The position numbers and the translations under genes were made by a program. From Dehalococcoidia bacterium (GTDB lineage: Bacteria > Chloroflexota > Dehalococcoidia > Lucifugimonadales > JAGWBF01): a DNA stretch of 64,000 bases. The stretch is taken from contig CBDFGE010000006.1 in the NCBI GenBank assembly GCA_965247055.1, positions 688,114 through 752,113 of the forward strand, written 5' to 3'. Positions 9,530-21,507 of this stretch are shown here, one piece after another (the stretch's first letter is position 1; the number at the start of each line of letters is the position of its first letter). The notes beneath the pieces are model-generated. The model was not told the DNA's origin. It searched no databases and saw only the letters and a list, made by a program, of their open reading frames with translations.

Positions 9530-10900
9530 CTAAGCCGCGGGTTCCAGGACCTCCCTCACCGCGCGCAGCAGGGTGTCTTCTTCTTCGAGGAACACAGTAC
9601 GGGGGTCAAGGACGACCCGGTCATCCTCAATGCGCGCGATCACCGGGGTGCTGTACTCCCTGAGCCGGCCTATCAAGCGCTGGGCGCCTCCGGGGAGATG
9701 ACTACACTCCAACGCCAGCAGCCAGGTGTCCAGAGTCCCGCCCGGGAGGCTGCCGCCACCAACTGTGGACAGCCCCCGCAACACCAGCGCCCTGTTACCG
9801 ATTACCGCCTGCCAGTGGTATGCCCTGTCCTCCAGCTCCCCCGCCGAGGTGCTTATCAGCCGCCAGACGGGCACTTTCACCTCCGCCTCACCCTTTACGT
9901 AATGGAGGAGCGTCGCTGAGAGGGCGGCCAGGCTTAGCTTATCCATGCGCACGGCCCGGGCCAGGGGATGGGCTGCCATTCTTCGCACGAGCTCCCTCCG
10001 GCCAACCACGATGCCGGCTTGGGGGCCGCCCAGCAGCTTGTCGCCGGAGAAGAACACCAGCGCAGCTCCCGCGGCGATGCTCTCCTGGGGAGTGGGCTCC
10101 CGAGCGAGGCCGTACTCCTGGGTGTTTAAGAGGCACCCGCTCCCCACATCGTGGAACAGGGGGATGCCGTGCCTGTTGCCTATCTCCACCAGCTCCGCCA
10201 CATCGGTGGACCGGGTGAAGCCCTCGAGCCGGAAATTGCTGGCGTGCACCTTAAGGAGGGCCGCCGTATTGTCGCTAACGGCCCCCTCATAGTCCGAGGC
10301 GTAAGTCCGGTTAGTAGTTCCCACCTCCACCAGCGTCGCTCCACTCTGCAGCATCACCTCCGGTATGCGGAAGCCTCCGCCGATCTCCACCTCCTCTCCC
10401 CGGGAGACTATCACCTCTTTGCCCCTGGTCAAGGTCGATAGCGCCAGCAGCAGGGTGGCGGCGTTGTTGTTCACCACCAGGGCTGCCTCGGCGCCGGTAA
10501 GCTGGCAGAGGAGGGGCTCTACGTTCGCCTGGCGCGAGCCACGCCTCCCTTCCAGCAGGTCCAGCTCCAGGTTGCTGTAACCCTCGGCCGCCTGAAGCAT
10601 CGCCTCCATCGCCTCGAGACTCAGGGGAGCACGGCCCAGATTGGTGTGTATGATGACCCCGGTGGCGTTGATTAAAGGCCGGGGAGCGGCCCTGCCGAGT
10701 ATCTCCACCTGGCGGGCGACAGCGTCGGAAATCTCGTCCAGGGTAGGAGCCGCCGCCCCGTTCCGTATCGCGCCCCTGGCCTCGTCTATCCTAGCCCGCA
10801 CCAGGTTGGTCACCCAGTCCCGGGTGTACTCCTCCATCAGCGTCCTCACGCGCCTGCTGGAAAGCACACTCTCCACACTGGGCAGGTTACGCAGCTCCAT
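9530..10900 (-). CDS. selA: L-seryl-tRNA(Sec) selenium transferase
   Basis: Full-length SelA pattern: LRNLPSVESVL, INATGVIIHTNLGRAPL, FSGDKLLGGPQAGIIVG-type PLP-Lys motif (FSGDKLLGGPQAGIVVG), VGGGSLPG. Confidence 0.9.
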   Translation of the reverse strand: MELRNLPSVESVLSSRRVRTLMEEYTRDWVTNLVRARIDEARGAIRNGAAAPTLDEISDAVARQVEILGRAAPRPLINATGVIIHTNLGRAPLSLEAMEAMLQAAEGYSNLELDLLEGRRGSRQANVEPLLCQLTGAEAALVVNNNAATLLLALSTLTRGKEVIVSRGEEVEIGGGFRIPEVMLQSGATLVEVGTTNRTYASDYEGAVSDNTAALLKVHASNFRLEGFTRSTDVAELVEIGNRHGIPLFHDVGSGCLLNTQEYGLAREPTPQESIAAGAALVFFSGDKLLGGPQAGIVVGRRELVRRMAAHPLARAVRMDKLSLAALSATLLHYVKGEAEVKVPVWRLISTSAGELEDRAYHWQAVIGNRALVLRGLSTVGGGSLPGGTLDTWLLALECSHLPGGAQRLIGRLREYSTPVIARIEDDRVVLDPRTVFLEEEDTLLRAVREVLEPAA

Positions 10901-14354: not shown

Positions 14355-15200
14355 GTGGGATACCGGTATATAAAGGTGGATAGGATGCAGGGTGTCGTCA
14401 TCCTGACCATGCACGATCCGAGTACCCGGAACGCCCTGGGCCACGAGATGGCCCGGGAGATGATCGAGGAGCTTGGCCGTTTCGAGGCCGACCCGGAGGA
14501 CAGGGTGGTGATGGTCACCGGCACCGAGCCTTCCTTCTGCTCGGGCGCCAACGTGAAAGAGTTCCGCCAGGACATCCAGTCGCGTGGCGATGGGCCGAGA
14601 GAGGGGCAAACTCTGCCCTGGGGCAAGATGGAAGCCCGCCTGGGCAGCCGGGAGGCCGGAGACCGGTCCCTTGTCCCCCAGGTCCCCCTCACGATTCACA
14701 ATCTCCAGAAACCATCCATCGCCGCGGTGAACGGACACGCCATCGGGGCGGGAATGGGGGTATCCCTCGCCTGCGACATTCGCATAGCCTCCGAGAGGGC
14801 GGTATTCTCCGAGGCCTTTGTGCGGATGGGGCTGGTACCCGCGGATGGGAGCTGCTGGCAGCTGCCCCGCCTCATCGGCCTGAGCAACACCCTCCTCCTC
14901 CAGTACACGGGGGACACGGTGGATGGCAACGAGGCCTACCGCATGGGGCTGTGCAGCAAGGTGGTGCCCCACGACGAGCTCATGCCCTCGGCCATGGAGC
15001 TGGCCTCGCGACTGGCCCGGGGAGCCACCCAGTCGATGTCCCTGACCAAGTACCTGGTCCACAGGTCCCTGGAGACCGGATTCCGGGAGAGCCTGGAGAT
15101 AGCCTGGTCCGCCCAGGAGATCGCCCGGCAGACCCAGGACCACGCGGAGGCGGTCCATGCCTTCCTGGAAAAGCGGCGCCCGGAGTTCAAGGGAAGGTGA
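14355..15200 (+). CDS. enoyl-CoA hydratase/isomerase family protein
   Basis: Crotonase fold motifs: FCSGANV, KPSIAAVNGHAIGAGMGVSLACDIRIA, EGVHAFLEKR-type C-terminus (EAVHAFLEKRRPEF). Confidence 0.9.
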   Translation: MGYRYIKVDRMQGVVILTMHDPSTRNALGHEMAREMIEELGRFEADPEDRVVMVTGTEPSFCSGANVKEFRQDIQSRGDGPREGQTLPWGKMEARLGSREAGDRSLVPQVPLTIHNLQKPSIAAVNGHAIGAGMGVSLACDIRIASERAVFSEAFVRMGLVPADGSCWQLPRLIGLSNTLLLQYTGDTVDGNEAYRMGLCSKVVPHDELMPSAMELASRLARGATQSMSLTKYLVHRSLETGFRESLEIAWSAQEIARQTQDHAEAVHAFLEKRRPEFKGR

Positions 15201-15363
15201 CTCAACGCCATGGCGTTGAATCTGGACCAACCACACGGCGTGTTGACGGCAAGGGCCATGCGAGATAACGTTGTGGGGAAGCGGCCCCTCCCCGCCCGGC
15301 GAGTCACACGAAGAGATAATTCCCTATTGCCGCAAAAATGCTGCACCATGTGAGGAGTCTCGG

Positions 15364-15981
15364 ATGAATGACGTCGAAAGACAGGCGGTGTTCTTCGTCG
15401 CAGACATATCCGGCTACACAAAGTTCATATTCTCCAACGAAAAGGAGATCGCCCATAGCCAGACAATCATCCGGGAGCTGATCACGACGCTCCTCGCAGA
15501 AGTAAATCTTCCCCTTCGGCTCGTCAGGATCGAAGGCGACGCCCTTTTTCTGTACGCCATCAAGGACGATCCTGAGCAGCCCTGGGAGACTGCGTCCAAG
15601 AACCTCGTCTTCAACGTAATGACTTTCTTCAAGGTCTTCTCAAACAAGGTCTCCGAGCTAACTATTCATAAGATCTGCAACTGCACGGCCTGCATCAACA
15701 TTGAGCGGTTGAAGCTTAAGATAGTTGTGCATAGCGGGCGAGCCGCCTTCTACCGGGTCAACGAGCATCAGGAGCTCACAGGAACCGGCCCTATCATCGT
15801 TCATCGATTGCTTAAGAACTCTGTCGAGGCCGATGAATATATCCTTTTGACCGAGTCGGCGTACAATGAACTCCCTCTCCCCGATGGGAAAGTGGAGCAG
15901 GGAGAGGAGACCTACGACGAGATTGGCACCATCAAAACCTACGTCTGTGAGGTGGACCCCAAAATTCGGACAGGTGGCTAA
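15364..15981 (+). pseudogene. DUF2652 (nucleotidyl-cyclase-like) protein, C-terminus replaced by IS3 sequence
   Basis: FFVADISGYTKFI...RIEGDALFLY...KIVVHSG resembles DUF2652. From nt 15948 the frame reads into the IS3 terminal repeat (…CEV/DPKIRTGG*). The gene is visibly AT-richer than its neighbours. Confidence 0.55.
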
Positions 15982-16026
15982 GAGAGAGTCCCGCTCCTAA
16001 AATAGGACGGAAACAAGGAGCAGGAC

Positions 16027-16311
16027 ATGAAGCAAACACGTAAGAAGCACAGCCCAGTCTTCAAGGCCAAAGTGGCTTTGGCCGCGCTCCAGGGGGAGCA
16101 CACCATTGCAGAGCTGGCCAGCCGGTTTGAAGTCCACCCGAGCCAGATCCATGCCTGGAAGAAGGCCTTGACTCAGGGGGCGCCGCACCTCTTTGAAAAT
16201 GGTGGTGGACGCCAGGAGAAGGACCAAGAGGTCCTCACTGCCCAGCTCTACCAACAGATTGGGCAGCTCAAGGTGGAACGGAATTTTTTGTCACGGAGCT
16301 TCGGGTTGTGA
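16027..16311 (+). CDS. IS3-family transposase OrfA (HTH)
   Basis: [41 protein letters not shown] is the typical IS3/IS911 OrfA. Confidence 0.9.
16284..16290 (+). promoter_or_regulatory. -1 programmed ribosomal frameshift heptamer T_TTT_TTG
   Basis: In orfA phase the codons are AAT TTT TTG, which fits X_XXY_YYZ. orfB is in the -1 phase and overlaps the orfA end. The heptamer is conserved in copy B. Confidence 0.6.
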
Positions 16312-17243
16312 GCCGGTCCCAACGCCGGGCCATGATTGACCGAGAAGAACCGAAGCTGTCTCTGGTGCGCCAGTGCGCCTTGCTGGGTATCAGCCGCTCC
16401 TCGTTGTACTACCTGCCAACCGAGGCCGGCGCCGAGGACTTGGAGTTGATGGCCCTCATAGACCAACAGTACCTGAAGACACCTTTCTACGGCTCCAGAA
16501 GGATGACTGCCTGGCTCAGCAATCACGGACACCAGGTCAACCGCAAGCGGGTCCGCCGGCTGATGCAGCTGATAGGCCTGGAGGCCATCTACCGGCGTCC
16601 CAACACCAGCAAGCCAAACCCAGGGCATAAGGTCTATCCGTACTTGCTCAGGGGGCTGGAGATCAACCGGGTCAACCAGGTGTGGGCCACCGACATCACC
16701 TACATACCCATGGCTCGGGGTTTCCTCTACTTGGTGGCCATCATGGACTGGCACAGCCGCTACGTGTTGGCCTGGCGGCTGTCCAACACCCTGGAGGTAG
16801 ACTTCTGTGTTGCGGCTCTGGAAGAGGCCTTGAGCAAGGGTCGGCCACAGATCTTCAACACCGACCAGGGCAGCCAGTTCACCAGCGAGGCCTTCACCAG
16901 CATGCTGCTGGCGCAAGGCGTTCAAGTGAGCATGGACGGCAGGGGCCGGTGCATGGACAACGTCTTCGTGGAACGGCTGTGGCGCAGCATCAAGTACGAG
17001 GAGGTGTACCTGAAGGCATACCAAAATGGGACTGAGGCCAGAAAGGGGATTGGGGCTTATCTGGCCTTCTACAACCAAGAGCGGCCCCATCAAGCCCTGG
17101 GCTATCGGTCACCGGGTCAGGTGTTCCATGCAGTGAGCCCACAAAGGTGTTTACTGGAACATCCACGAGCCTTACCATCGGGTGAAGGTTTACAAGACAC
17201 CCCAGCGGTAGACTCTCTTATTTTAGCCTCACCGCTGTCCTGA
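16308..17243 (+). CDS. IS3-family transposase OrfB (DDE integrase core)
   Basis: WATDITYI...TDQGSQFTS...[20 protein letters not shown] is the rve-domain pattern. Probably made as an OrfAB fusion. Confidence 0.9.
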
Positions 17244-17267
17244 TCATGGGGTCCACTTGGAATTGGC

Positions 17268-17864
17268 TTGACCTTCACCCTCGCCGTAGCGGGAATAGTC
17301 ACCGGATTTACGCTGAACGCTGGGTCCGGCGAACCAGCGCAGGACCCGGATGCCACCAGCATAGACGACATCGACCCCAAGGTGTGCAACGCGATTCACA
17401 ACATCAACGCCTGCACTCCCGAGGAGCTGGAAGACCTTGGAGTGGCCCCTCACGGTGACCCCACCTACGATGAGTGGCTGTCCGACTTCGGAGATGGAAA
17501 GGTCGTCACCAGCATAGACAACGTCGACCCCAACGCGTGCGACTATATCCACAATATCAACGCCTGCACCCCCGAGGAGCTAGAAGAACTGGGAAACCTA
17601 GCAGCGATATCTTGGATAGTTGATCCCGACACCGTAGTAGAGGGTGAGCCCGAGCCCCCGTTCGTGGATGGCGAGCCAGTCACGAATCAGGAGTGCGATC
17701 TGGCTGGGGGGACTTTCTGGGCTAGCTCTGATGGCAAGGTTGGGTGCGACATCGTCAACGATCCTGAGGACGGTGGAGAAGGTGAGACCCAAGCGCAGCC
17801 TCCCGGTGGTGATACCCCAGGTCGAGCCATCCGCCTAATAAGGAGCTACGACCCTGCTACATGA
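17268..17864 (+). CDS. hypothetical protein with two HhH-like repeats, N-terminus probably lost to IS3
   Basis: Repeats IDDIDPKVCNAIHNINACTPEELEDLG and IDNVDPNACDYIHNINACTPEELEELG resemble the ComEA-type INxAxxEEL helix-hairpin-helix motif. The ORF opens only 8 codons after the IS3 end, inside a hydrophobic helix, and has a TTG start. Confidence 0.45.
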   Translation: MTFTLAVAGIVTGFTLNAGSGEPAQDPDATSIDDIDPKVCNAIHNINACTPEELEDLGVAPHGDPTYDEWLSDFGDGKVVTSIDNVDPNACDYIHNINACTPEELEELGNLAAISWIVDPDTVVEGEPEPPFVDGEPVTNQECDLAGGTFWASSDGKVGCDIVNDPEDGGEGETQAQPPGGDTPGRAIRLIRSYDPAT

Positions 17865-17868
17865 AATA

Positions 17869-17913
17869 GACGAGGCCGCCGGTTACCCACAACCGGCGGC
17901 CTCGTTCTATTAT
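17869..17913 (+). terminator. rho-independent terminator
   Basis: 15-bp stem ACGAGGCCGCCGGTT-acccac-AACCGGCGGCCTCGT followed by a T-rich tail, 5 nt after the stop codon. Confidence 0.8.
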
Positions 17914-18041
17914 TGGGGTATTTCTCGGGACGTAACCCGCGAGCACTGGGCAGCGCCACGGGGATCCAAGTTCGAAGCAACATATAAGTAAGGACCCAAT
18001 GTAAACGTGGACGGTCCCATACAGTCTACGGCCACACAGAA

Positions 18042-19410
18042 GGGTCACGTCCCATAGAGTGGTGTAAGAGTACGTCATCCTGTTGATATCGTCTAGGCCG
18101 CTGCCTCTGCGAGTTCGGCTCTGGGTAGAGCTTCGTTGGAGGTGGTTACCTCCTGTGTCATGTATCGACGGCCGACGGCCCACTCGTCGTGCTGCTCAGC
18201 TAGGACGGCGCCGACCAGGCGACGGACAGATGGGCGGTTAGGGAAGATGCCCACCACATCGGTGCGGCGCCGTATCTCCTTGTTGAGACGCTGCAGGGGG
18301 TTGTTGGACCAGATCTTCTTCCAGTGGGCGACGGGGAAGCTGGAGAAGGCCAGGACGTCGGGTCCAGCCTCGTCCAGTCGAGAGGCGCCCTGTGGGAACG
18401 GGTCCTGGAGCTGAGCAATCACCCGCTCGAGTTGGGCATGCACCTCCTGAGGGGACGGCTGCTGGTAGATGGTGCGTACCATGGTGGCCACCCAGGGCTG
18501 AGCGCTCCTGGGGACCCGAGTGAGCAGGTTGGTCATGAAGTGGGTGCGGCACCGCTGCCAACTGGCCCCACCGAAGACAGTTGCGATGGCATCCCTGAGT
18601 CCCTGATGAGCGTCCGATACCACCAGTTCCACCCCGCCCAGGCCCCTGGCGACCAGTGAGCGCAGGAAGGCCAGCCAGAAGGCGCCGTCTTCACTGGTAC
18701 CCACGTCCATCCCAACGATCTCACGCTTGCCCTCGCTATTGACCGCCGTCGCCACCACCACGCTGACGTTGACTATCCTACCGGCCTCTCTGACCTTCTG
18801 GGTTAGTGCGTCCAGCCACAGGTAGGGATATGATCCGCCGTCCAGCGGCCGACCCAGGAAGCTCTCCACCACCCCGTCCAGCTCCTGGCAGATACGCGAC
18901 ACTTGGCTCTTTGAGATACCCTCGCACCCAAGAGCCTTGACCAGATCATCCACTCGCCTCGTCGATACACCCTCCACATACGCCTGCTGGATCACCGCCA
19001 GCAGAGCTCGCTCGCTGCGACGCCGTGGCTCCAGCAGGCTCGGAAAGTAGCTTCCCTCTCTGAGCTTGGGTATCTGCAACTCCATGGTCCCTACGCGAGT
19101 GTCCCATGCTCGAGACCGGTACCCGTTGCGCTGGGTCACCCGCTCAGGGTTGCGTTCTCCATACCCAGCACCGGTCCTCGATGACACATCAGCCTCCATG
19201 ATCTCCTCGACCAGCACTCTCAGTGCCTCTCGTAGAAAGTCCACGTCACCGTCGACTCCCCTCTTGCGCATTAGCTCAAGCAGGTCCATCCTTTCCTTGA
19301 CCACCGTTGTCCTCCTTTCTCAGGCTCGTCTTTGCCCGCTAAGGATGACGTGGTGGTCTCTCTTCATCCAGACCCTCTCCTCTTGTTACACCACTTCCTG
19401 GGACTCTACT
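18042..19410 (-). mobile_element. IS256-family insertion sequence, copy B (complete; ends uncertain by about 10 bp)
   Basis: Intact transposase plus both termini. Imperfect IRs GTCCCAGGAAGTGGTGTAACAAGAG and GTCCCATAGAGTGGTGTAAGAG. Flanks differ (cacacagaag versus tctactgaac), so no target duplication is visible. Confidence 0.85.
18093..19304 (-). CDS. IS256-family (Mutator-type) transposase, intact
   Basis: 403-aa uninterrupted ORF with ...VSDAHQGLRDAI...WQRCRTHFMTN...NPLQRLNKEIRRR motifs. Confidence 0.95.
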   Translation of the reverse strand: MVKERMDLLELMRKRGVDGDVDFLREALRVLVEEIMEADVSSRTGAGYGERNPERVTQRNGYRSRAWDTRVGTMELQIPKLREGSYFPSLLEPRRRSERALLAVIQQAYVEGVSTRRVDDLVKALGCEGISKSQVSRICQELDGVVESFLGRPLDGGSYPYLWLDALTQKVREAGRIVNVSVVVATAVNSEGKREIVGMDVGTSEDGAFWLAFLRSLVARGLGGVELVVSDAHQGLRDAIATVFGGASWQRCRTHFMTNLLTRVPRSAQPWVATMVRTIYQQPSPQEVHAQLERVIAQLQDPFPQGASRLDEAGPDVLAFSSFPVAHWKKIWSNNPLQRLNKEIRRRTDVVGIFPNRPSVRRLVGAVLAEQHDEWAVGRRYMTQEVTTSNEALPRAELAEAAA

Positions 19411-19735
19411 GAACATGATGGGCCGTGGTGGAGAAGTGATTGGCGTCGACATGACCAAGGAGATGATCGACAAAGCGAGCAGCAACGCGCAAGCGATCGG
19501 GGCCAAGAATATTTCATTCAGGCAAGGGGTTATCGAGGACCTTCCCGTGGAAGACGAGTGGGCCGATGTTGTTATCTCAAATGGCGCAATCAATCTGGCG
19601 CCAGACAAAGCCGAGGTCTTTCGCGAGCTAAATCGAGTCCTTAAGCCCGGAGGCTGGCTCCAGATTGCGGACATCCTGGTTGAGAAGCCTATCCCGGATA
19701 GCGCCAAGCGAAATATCGACTTGTGGACGGGTTGA
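19411..19735 (+). pseudogene. ArsM/UbiE-like class I SAM methyltransferase, middle fragment (5' end removed by IS256, interrupted 3' by IS3)
   Basis: GEVIGVDMTKEMIDKA...DVVISNGAINLAPDK...LKPGGWLQIADI...DLWTG then TGA at 19733-19735. Colinear with arsenite methyltransferase-type enzymes. Confidence 0.8.
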
Positions 19736-19762
19736 ATCGCCGGGGTCAAGTGGACCCCATGA

Positions 19763-20698
19763 TCAGGACAGGGGTGAGGCTAAAATAAGAGAGTCTACCG
19801 CTGGGGTGTCTCGTAAACCTTCATCCGATGGTAAGGCTCGTGGATGTTCCAGTAAACACCTTTGTGGGCTCACTGCATGGAACACCTGACCCGGTGACCG
19901 ATAGCCCAGGGCTTGATGGGGCCGCTCTTGGTTGTAGAAGGCCAGATAAGCCCCAATCCCCTTTCTGGCCTCAGTCCCATTTTGGTATGCCTTCAGGTAC
20001 ACCTCCTCGTACTTGATGCTGCGCCACAGCCGTTCCACGAAGACGTTGTCCATGCACCGGCCCCTGCCGTCCATGCTCACTTGAACGCCTTGCGCCAGCA
20101 GCATGCTGGTGAAGGCCTCGCTGGTGAACTGGCTGCCCTGGTCGGTGTTGAAGATCTGTGGCCGACCCTTGCTCAAGGCCTCTTCCAGAGCCGCAACACA
20201 GAAGTCTACCTCCAGGGTGTTGGACAGCCGCCAGGCCAGCACGTAGCGGCTGTGCCAGTCCATGATGGCCACCAAGTAGAGGAAACCCCGAGCCATGGGT
20301 ATGTAGGTGATGTCGGTGGCCCACACCTGGTTGACCCGGTTGATCTCCAGCCCCCTGAGCAAGTACGGATAGACCTTATGCCCTGGGTTTGGCTTGCTGG
20401 TGTTGGGACGCCGGTAGATGGCCTCCAGGCCTATCAGCTGCATCAGCCGGCGGACCCGCTTGCGGTTGACCTGGTGTCCGTGATTGCTGAGCCAGGCAGT
20501 CATCCTTCTGGAGCCGTAGAAAGGTGTCTTCAGGTACTGTTGGGCTATGAGGGCCATCAACTCCAAGTCCTCGGCGCCGGCCTCGGTTGGCAGGTAGTAC
20601 AACGAGGAGCGGCTGATACCCAGCAAGGTGCACTGGCGCACCAGAGACAGCTTCGGTTCTTCTCGGTCAATCATGGCCCGGCGTTGGGACCGGCTCAC
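19763..20698 (-). CDS. IS3-family transposase OrfB
   Basis: 311 aa. Differs from copy A at only a few residues (A/T, D/A, GEGLQ/DEGLR). Confidence 0.9.
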
Positions 20699-20979
20699 AA
20701 CCCGAAGCTCCGTGACAAAAAATCCCGTTCCACCTTGAGCTGCCCAATCTGTTGGTAGAGCTGGGCAGTGAGGACCTCTTGGTCCTTCTCCTGGCGTCCA
20801 CCACCATTTTCAAAGAGGTGCGGCGCCCCCTGAGTCAAGGCCTTCTTCCAGGCATGGATCTGGCTCGGGTGGACTTCAAACCGGCTGGCCAGCTCTGCAA
20901 TGGTGTGCTCCCCCTGGAGCGCGGCCAAAGCCACTTTGGCCTTGAAGACTGGGCTGTGCTTCTTACGTGTTTGCTTCAT
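20695..20979 (-). CDS. IS3-family transposase OrfA
   Basis: 94 aa, one substitution (N/D) relative to copy A. Confidence 0.9.
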
Positions 20980-21058
20980 GTCCTGCTCCTTGTTTCCGTC
21001 CTATTTTAGGAGCGGGACTCTCTCTTAGCCACCTGTCCGAATTTTGGGGTCCACCTCA

Positions 21059-21231
21059 GGGCTCTGCTGGAAGCAGAGCTGGCTAACAAGGTATCAAAGG
21101 CAGGGTTCGACGATTTCGAGATCACCTGGCGAGGGGACATCTTCAGGGATACTTCCCTGCAAAGCGCCGCATACGACTTCGGCATTATGGGGATTACCTA
21201 TCGCGCACGAAAGTCCAGGGCCGCCGGGTAG
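21059..21231 (+). pseudogene. ArsM/UbiE-like methyltransferase, 3' fragment
   Basis: In phase after in-silico excision of the IS: ...IAG|ALLEAELANKVSKAGFDDFEITWRGDIF...GITYRARK*. This matches the C-terminal GALxxxxYxxxLxxAGF region of ArsM-type enzymes. Confidence 0.8.
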
Positions 21232-21507
21232 TCAGCAACGTTTCTAGGGCCTACAGCACGAGAGGCCCTGGTCTGCAGACCCCAGTACCTCAAAGGGTTG
21301 CGCGGGGAAGCAGCTCCACCAGAGATGGTCCGGCCGCCACGACGATAGCCGAAGCAGAAGGTGGCGCCAGGTCGGGCGTTCCCCATGTCCGGCTTGCCTT
21401 GCCATAGCCTCAGCCGGCCGGTATGATAGCCAGAAGGCATCTAGAAGGCCTCAAGCATCGTCCGAGGGGTGATTCCACCCCTGCGGACATCCACAACCGG
21501 AGGGAAC

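Follow-up and report, generated by a model that had tools for sequence, protein, structure and literature searches.

The 64-kb stretch of DNA analysed here, called the window in the following, carries between positions 15364 and 21231 what very probably remains of a single gene, about 469 codons long and now dead, that would have encoded a selenoprotein, made of a DUF2652 domain and an S-adenosylmethionine (SAM) methyltransferase resembling the arsenite methyltransferase ArsM. An earlier note, drawn up from the letters and a list of open reading frames (ORFs) only, had pointed to the 3' part of this locus as a candidate dead selenoprotein gene with a TGA codon for selenocysteine (Sec) and a hairpin resembling a selenocysteine insertion sequence (SECIS). 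Two copies of an insertion sequence (IS) of the IS3 family, an IS256-family element and some filler DNA are embedded in the gene. A contig from another sample, L081, is described below. In window coordinates the parts are as follows.

15364-15946, plus strand: DUF2652 5' remnant of the ancestral gene, beginning at ATG 15364 with MNDVERQAVFF... and ending ...GTIKTYV at IS3 copy A

15948-17259, plus strand: IS3-family element, copy A, delimited by blastn against copy B; orfB homologue at 16308-17243

17260-18042, no strand: filler DNA of about 780 bp between two insertion sequences, outside the gene proper and absent from the L081 locus

~18043-19410, minus strand: IS256-family element; transposase ORF 18093-19304, PF00872 (Transposase_mut) 445 bits

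19411-19732, plus strand: methyltransferase core fragment (...NMMGRGGEVIGVDM...ISNGAINL...NIDLWTG); PF13847 87.6 bits, NF008823 174.6 bits

19733-19735, plus strand: in-frame TGA, putative Sec codon and U of a UxxG motif, aligned with Cys224 of CmArsM

19743-19745, no strand: left copy of the GGG target-site duplication of IS3 copy B; its register in the G run is ambiguous

19746-21058, minus strand: IS3-family element, copy B; orfA 20695-20979, orfB 19763-20698

21059-21061, no strand: right copy of the GGG target-site duplication; G21061 is also the first base of the hairpin

21061-21079, plus strand: predicted bacterial SECIS (bSECIS) hairpin GCUCUGC-UGGAA-GCAGAGC, with a 7-bp stem, a 5-nt loop and GG at loop positions 2-3

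21062-21231, plus strand: coding 3' end (ALLEAELANKVSKAGFDDFEITWRGD...RARKSRAAG), with the stop TAG at 21229-21231

9530-10900, minus strand: selA, intact; TIGR00474 550.4 bits (cutoff 267.9), with profile positions 1-454 of 455 aligned

The methyltransferase ORF fragment at 19415-19735 ends ...RNIDLWTG-TGA, and the 1313-bp copy B of the IS3 element begins directly past ATCGCCGGGG. This copy has GGG on either flank and imperfect terminal inverted repeats (T[G/C]A[G/A]GTGGACCCCA...), and it encodes HTH_Tnp_1 in orfA and rve, rve_3 and HTH_21 in orfB. When 19415-19745 and 21062-21231 are joined, a single frame results, which reads MMGRGG...NIDLWTG, the TGA and then IAGALLEAELANKVSKAGFDDFEITWRGDIFRDTSLQSAAYDFGIMGITYRARKSRAAG up to the TAG, with 56 codons from TGA to TAG. 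It had been proposed that taking out copy B together with one GGG would rejoin the fragments in frame, and that the element had gone in between the UGA and the hairpin; the first was reproduced, the coordinates agree with the second, and an empty site supports both. This site lies on the ENA contig L081, which carries the nearest protein match (P0002, 99% identical). By blastn, L081 6135-6469 corresponds to window 19411-19745 and L081 6467-6692 to window 21059-21283. Since these two alignments overlap by exactly 3 bp, GGG, which L081 has only once and with no IS3 copy B, L081 is the empty site of copy B. L081 is a 2x assembly with single-base frameshifts of its own and fixes the architecture of the locus, not each base. 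Both copies A and B have the two ORFs and the inverted repeats of the IS3 family, and a target duplication is present for copy B only.

The TGA at 19733-19735 aligns with Cys224 of CmArsM (llgeC/lygeC-LgGAL) in three solved As(III) methyltransferases. The claim that it stands at the conserved cysteine, as one half of a Cys/Sec pair, was checked for a TGA lying off that cysteine, and the two do align. A search of 5.8 billion proteins returned, among its top 120 protein clusters, about 65 that end ...LW[TA]G, often with a length of 204 aa, about 50 that read LWTGCIAG, and three with LWTGWIAG, where the gene caller had rendered the TGA as Trp. At the DNA level, in two scans of the GTDB species representatives, this codon was TGA at 109 distinct loci and TGC or TGT at 17 (73 and 7 among the first 80 loci); these counts come from the best 80 of about 550-590 matches in each scan and therefore from a biased sample (loci L001-L080 and L162-L238). 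The loci belong to Chloroflexota, Acidobacteriota, Gemmatimonadota, Rubrobacterales, Desulfobacterota, Planctomycetota, Nitrospinota and Proteobacteria. Past the TGA, an open and conserved frame (IAGALLEAEL...AAGF.DFEITWR...FGT.GI.FRARK) continues across phyla, and UGA is found where homologues have Cys. Cys forms without the hairpin exist as well, as expected of a Sec/Cys family. The TGA thus reads as the selenocysteine codon of a real selenoprotein gene that is now dead, and Sec insertion in the orthologues is predicted on the same grounds.

The hairpin GCTCTGCTGGAAGCAGAGC at 21061-21079 is perfect and starts 10 nt past the TGA in the rejoined sequence. In a pattern search with up to two mismatches it is the sole match in the window, with 0.01 expected by chance, and this search gave neither a second copy of the hairpin nor a paralogue there. 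Its minimum free energy (MFE) is -11.7 kcal/mol alone and -18.6 kcal/mol in a 51-nt context. Published criteria for bSECIS elements ask for 3-9 nt in the loop and 4-16 bp in the upper stem, a G among the first two loop positions, a distance of 16-37 nt between UGA and loop, and an MFE of at most -7.5 kcal/mol (PMC13188914). The loop UGGAA has 5 nt with G at positions 2-3, the stem 7 bp, and the spacing is 16 nt, so that every one of these values lies within the published range and the geometry described in the earlier note was recovered. A lower stem of three further pairs, GCC/GGC, had also been suggested; it does fold in this sequence, but its columns pair in only 14-54% of orthologues, and it was ruled out as part of the element. 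As a separate observation, the insertion point of copy B (19745/19746) falls in the run of G at the foot of the SECIS stem on its 5' side.

Selection on the hairpin can be read from the third codon positions. Within the 109 Sec forms, the third positions of stem codons +4, +5, +6, +8 and +9 have an entropy of 0.00, 0.18, 0.21, 0.49 and 0.26 bit, against a median of 1.6 bit for the remaining third positions of codons -20 to +29, none of which falls below 0.92 bit (Mann-Whitney p = 7e-7). In the 17 Cys forms, the same five positions lie at about 1.29-1.81 bit and do not stand out (Mann-Whitney p = 0.52). Codon use in the stem of the Sec forms is nearly fixed (GCT 108/109, CTG 105/109, CTG 99/109, GCA 92/109 and GAG 104/109), and the codon of the conserved Leu that immediately follows the stem varies freely between CTC, CTT, CTG, CTA and TTA. 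Stem cells are paired in 98% of cases in Sec forms and in 51% in Cys forms, compared with 20-45% if the 3' partner is offset by 1-3 columns. The mean MFE of the 45 nt from the codon onwards is -18.8 kcal/mol for Sec forms vs -12.8 for Cys forms (p = 1e-7). The window hairpin is identical to the commonest variant, found in 43 of the 109. From this pattern the hairpin is judged to be a genuine SECIS element under selection at the RNA level.

With regard to the decoding machinery, it had been claimed that selA lies near the gene and that the organism appears to decode Sec. The full-length selA listed above is in line with this, and an intact selA indicates that the genome encodes Sec biosynthesis. 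By its SelA, which is 79% identical to that of the best species representative, the organism belongs to the Dehalococcoidia; up to 46-49 selenoproteins per genome are reported for this class (PMC13326102). Neither selB nor tRNA-Sec adjoins selA in the window or in relatives whose SelA is 69-79% identical, so that the gene stands by itself there, and in more distant Dehalococcoidia a tRNA-SeC(tca) is located at most 4 kb from selA (loci L082-L110 compared). A crude scan of the window for other selenoprotein genes (criteria: a TGA preceded by 60 or more codons and followed by 20 or more, plus a bSECIS-like hairpin) gave 15 matches, all with non-coding-looking translations rich in Arg, Pro and Gly, and none of them is claimed.

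Which enzyme the gene encoded is a separate question. Pfam recognises generic class I methyltransferase domains only; the orthologues match PF13847, PF08241 and PF13649 and carry VVDxGCGAGxD, which contains SAM motif I (GxGxG). The arsenite methyltransferase model NF008823 is the best NCBIfam model for the rejoined fragment (174.6 bits). Among the established selenoprotein families there is a Sec-containing 'arsenite methyltransferase' with the motif UxxG, which is credited to Fomenko et al. 2007 Science and also listed in PMC9312934 and in the current catalogue PMC13188914. A later comparative-genomics survey gives family counts of 39 and 41 (PMC5029168). The Global Ocean Sampling (GOS) survey had 8 Sec and 245 Cys sequences of the ArsM type (PMC2398784); the excess of Sec over Cys forms in the best-matching representatives, 109:17, is the reverse of this, in a sample that is biased. 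By the loose, domain-based definition of these surveys, the gene belongs to the known family. It shares with the Sec arsenite S-adenosylmethyltransferase family (PRK11873/NF008823, UxxG) the fold family, a Sec position that reads U-I-A-G and equals Cys224, the Sec/Cys pair, and a SECIS hairpin in the coding region directly 3' of the UGA. Unlike that family, the proteins here score below the cutoff, have lost three ArsM cysteines, and in some cases carry an N-terminal DUF2652.

The gene might nevertheless be a bona fide ArsM that serves in arsenic detoxification and in which Sec replaces one Cys. The NF008823 match, the fact that ArsM and AS3MT are the best solved-structure matches, and the listing of such UxxG proteins as a selenoprotein family speak for this. 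However, full-length orthologues score 220-228 bits (L001 227.7, L008 220.5) and stay below the curated NF008823 cutoff of 263. When a full-length orthologue is aligned with 5EVJ and 4KW7, it has Arg for Cys44, Thr for Cys72 (FAGTGNPF vs FYGCGS/FWGCGNP) and Gly for Cys174. The window itself has Gly at the Cys174 equivalent (ISNGAINL vs viSNCv). That the SNC cysteine is Gly and the protein no canonical ArsM had already been noted and holds, and Arg at Cys44 and Thr at Cys72 now come in addition. The loss of these three of the four required cysteines is seen across the 120 homologue clusters, in Sec and Cys forms alike, and of the four only Cys224 has a counterpart, either Sec or Cys. Four conserved cysteines are present in all As(III) SAM methyltransferases, with the Cys174-Cys224 pair as the metalloid site (PMC6138428), and because of this requirement the subfamily, going by its alignments, fails two defining ArsM features. 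In addition, ars genes were not recurrent beside the orthologues in the neighbourhoods of 80 loci. Taken together, a true ArsM function is unlikely.

Similarity to the solved enzymes CmArsM and human AS3MT (PDB 4FR0, 4KW7, 5EVJ and 8XT7) covers the N-terminal region and the Rossmann fold (E = 1e-20 to 1e-27), with Sec at the position of Cys224. In contrast to these, the eukaryotic-type C-terminal domain is absent here (~260 aa vs ~380), and an invariant GFHFHTGR is found where ArsM has Cys44. ArsM-type fusion selenoproteins have been described by Haft & Tolstoy 2025, as cited in PMC13188914, namely NF041537 (ArsM/AhpD), NF041536 (ArsM/DUF2284) and NF047649 (methyltransferase/UXPK-star). The methyltransferase domain matches these models with 196-226 bits (model positions ~7-233, N-terminal region included), about as well as it matches canonical ArsM, and UxxG Sec and domain fusions are common to both. 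None of the cutoffs (510, 575 and 460 bits) is reached, and the matches are confined to the methyltransferase domain. The proteins here differ by having no AhpD or DUF2284 and no UXPK-stop Sec; there is a single TGA, the end is ...RARKSRAAG-TAG, and the fusion partner, DUF2652, is N-terminal.

This partner was found upstream of the methyltransferase of L081 and is read in the same direction. Nine species-representative loci (L001-L005, L007, L012, L024 and L221), which span at least two phyla, have DUF2652 and methyltransferase in one unbroken frame of 468-472 codons that includes the TGA, and one of these loci, L001, is the closest full-length match in the first genome scan (83% identity). 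L081 4243-5811 matches window 14382-15946 collinearly with 99% identity (blastn). Within this region, the window ORF from ATG 15364 encodes a full DUF2652 domain (PF10851, 98.9 bits over its full length) and corresponds to the N-terminal 190 aa of the ancestral gene. The surviving 5' part measures 583 nt (15364-15946) and lies 3.5 kb upstream of the methyltransferase fragment. L081 5812-6134 is without counterpart in the window (about 322 bp once a 1-nt error of L081 is corrected), and homology resumes at window 19411. The lost DNA encodes YYPPEPEPYV...GFHFHTGRRL...ESFAGT(T)GNPF...VVDAGCGAGLDSLIAA, including SAM motif I (VVDAGCGAGLD).

DUF2652 is a predicted class III nucleotidyl-cyclase-like domain (PMC4886424), which the remnant matches over the full length. 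A survey of the domain reported essentially single-domain proteins and one polyketide-cyclase fusion in Actinobacteria, Bacteroidetes and Proteobacteria, with no methyltransferase fusion and none from Chloroflexota (PMC4886424), and no description of a DUF2652-methyltransferase(Sec) fusion was found in the literature searched. One of the fusion loci, L002, on a Dehalococcoidia metagenome-assembled genome (CBDFJT010000003.1), has the fusion followed 15 nt on by a standalone methyltransferase(Sec) paralogue (L002 3586 and 4440); each has its own TGA and an identical GCTCTGCTGGAAGCAGAGC hairpin.

Where the 322 bp were lost, the window has IS3 copy A, the filler and the IS256-family element. Copies A and B are 99.5% identical (1312 bp with seven mismatches, blastn) and lie in opposite orientations. 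Because no target duplication is visible at its ends, copy A is associated with a deletion or rearrangement. The IS256-family element covers positions 7-377 of 379 of PF00872 and has an imperfect terminal repeat GTCCCA..AGTGGTGTAA at both ends; its left end, set from this imperfect repeat, is approximate, and its right end abuts the methyltransferase fragment. The earlier note had assumed that an IS256 element simply removed the 5' end, which is wrong, as 583 nt of it persist at 15364-15946 and about 322 internal bp are gone. To judge from the alignments, the 5' end was displaced, not removed, and the gene was struck at least twice.

Two near-identical IS3 copies and an IS256 element within 5 kb are a classic source of mis-assembly, and a 99%-identical contig has the locus uninterrupted, so the arrangement might be an artefact of collapsed or mis-joined repeats with an intact real gene behind it. 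This is very improbable. The junctions of copy B are exact at either end and its 3-bp duplication is clean, seven differences between the two IS3 copies show that they are no collapsed repeat, and L081 originates from a different sample and has an IS110 of its own nearby, which fits real strain-level IS activity. This IS110-family element (PF01548/PF02371) occupies L081 3068-4242 beside a MOSC-domain gene, and the window is without it at 14382/14383. L081 also carries 166 extra bp just 3' of the gene (L081 6693-6858; window junction 21283/21284). The neighbourhood is an insertion and indel hot spot in both strains. The filler, unmatched in L081 over 17260-18042, contains an ORF at 17268-17864 (198 aa) with an internal repeat, …IDxxDPxxCxxIHNINACTPEELE[DE]LG…, and without a match in Pfam or NCBIfam.

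Even less can be said for an ordinary stop, by which the TGA would end a methyltransferase of about 200 aa at ...LWTG and the hairpin would be unrelated, for example a terminator. Dozens of database entries are annotated in this way (e.g. PKB63600.1 and MQG41222.1), and a stem-loop past a stop codon could be a terminator. However, the 55-60 codons beyond the TGA encode a protein sequence that is conserved across phyla and aligns with ArsM structures past Cys224, Cys-form homologues read through the same position, and truncation would drop the residue equivalent to the ArsM metalloid ligand. No T run follows the hairpin, which moreover lies inside conserved coding sequence. This reading is therefore scarcely tenable. 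The notion that the hairpin is no RNA signal and was kept merely through conservation of the ALLEAEL peptide or by recent horizontal transfer deserves just as little credit: although IAGALLEAEL is 90-100% conserved in Sec forms and covariation is sparse, four- and six-fold degenerate third positions are fixed in the stem and the equally conserved next Leu codon varies, both the codon bias and the pairing are missing from Cys forms with similar peptides, and recent transfer is excluded as the cause because the flanking synonymous sites are saturated (third-position entropy about 0.9-2.0 bit).

Several points weigh against the interpretation of the locus as a dead selenoprotein gene of about 469 codons. 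Compensatory changes in the hairpin are few (pair 18-26 changed from GC to TA twice, besides a handful of G-U wobbles), and for this reason the support for the hairpin comes from conservation, that is invariance, and not from covariation. A permissive Rfam scan (E up to 10) of the uninterrupted sequence, L081 6380-6600, gave no match, nor did a scan of the window at gathering thresholds; these nulls are uninformative, as Rfam has no model for this SECIS, and are expected of a short family-specific bacterial SECIS. In the 64-kb window, selB, selC and selD were not found (no tRNA by ARAGORN, and selA only in NCBIfam scans of 20 large ORFs). The noise in L081 makes the deletion size (322 or 323 bp) and the ancestral length approximate. 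Finally, selenium in members of the subfamily is deduced from sequence.

In bacteria, the standard arrangement is that a hairpin tethers SelB-Sec-tRNA(Sec) to the ribosome paused at UGA. By analogy with other bacterial SECIS elements, the UGA of the intact gene would be recoded as Sec, with a 19-nt stem-loop 10 nt downstream, which also encodes ALLEAEL, recruiting SelB with Sec-tRNA(Sec) to the ribosome. The selenocysteine at the Cys224 position would be the sole conserved active-site nucleophile of the methyltransferase. Two independent events would account for the death of the gene. Copy B puts the decoding hairpin 1.3 kb from the UGA, where translation would halt. Copy A, 780 bp of foreign DNA and the IS256 element stand in place of about 322 internal bp, by which SAM motif I is lost and the DUF2652 part split from the methyltransferase part; the promoter-proximal DUF2652 part runs into copy A. 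Because of the 1.3 kb between UGA and hairpin, the deletion of motif I and the entry of the DUF2652 part into copy A, this copy is not expected to be expressible.

For the intact orthologues, the substrate is probably other than arsenite, since three ArsM cysteines are absent and the score is below the NF008823 cutoff. The most likely chemistry, proposed with low confidence, would be the transfer of a methyl group from SAM to a soft substrate held by a lone selenol, and not the multi-thiol chemistry of ArsM; with equally low confidence, the His-x-His of GFHFHTGR possibly assists the methyl transfer. The orthologues have as neighbours a major facilitator superfamily (MFS) transporter at 16 of 80 loci, a metallo-beta-lactamase (MBL)-fold protein at 11 and OsmC at 7, and these weak associations are insufficient to assign a pathway. 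One Cys-form homologue (P0023, JGI, 254 aa) ends in a TusA-like sulfurtransferase domain (PF01206), a further fusion partner, and this hints at a chemistry of sulfur or selenium. A link to the hydrogen sulfide/methanethiol S-methyltransferases MddH and MddM was considered and dropped, as both papers are without testable sequence or family information. A tentative and somewhat doubtful extension is that the intact orthologues form an uncurated, mostly Sec-form methyltransferase family distinct from ArsM, with a lone selenol beside the invariant GFHFHTGR, without the other three cysteines that handle arsenic, and with a recurrent DUF2652 fusion. If so, the substrate would be a non-arsenite one, such as a chalcogenide or thiol that needs one soft ligand only, a mono-ligand organometal(loid) like trivalent dimethylarsenic (DMAs(III)) or methylmercury, or selenide, and the fusions might couple methylation to a nucleotide-binding or signalling domain.

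The locus is a pseudogene of an already known kind of selenoprotein, and in this the earlier note was right. Two methyltransferase fragments and a DUF2652 fragment become one explained pseudogene, and recent IS3 and IS256 activity is documented in a Sec-decoding Dehalococcoidia lineage. At the level of the family, the mis-annotation, the uniform SECIS, the loss of ArsM cysteines and the recurrent DUF2652 fusion are added. A widespread family, with more than 100 species representatives in at least seven phyla, is mis-annotated as cut at the Sec codon. The roughly 65 of the 120 nearest clusters (P0001-P0120) that end at the Sec-TGA, some of them from Tara Oceans, are named 'methyltransferase domain-containing protein' or 'hypothetical protein' (e.g. 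MEC9289754.1 and MCH2498647.1). Existing curated thresholds are missed, and a dedicated model with the UGA and the uniform SECIS GCUCUGCUGGARGCAGAGC would mend these annotations. As one ArsM cysteine of four is kept, and preferentially as Sec, the intact orthologues would offer a tractable test of what a lone selenol does in a SAM methyltransferase.

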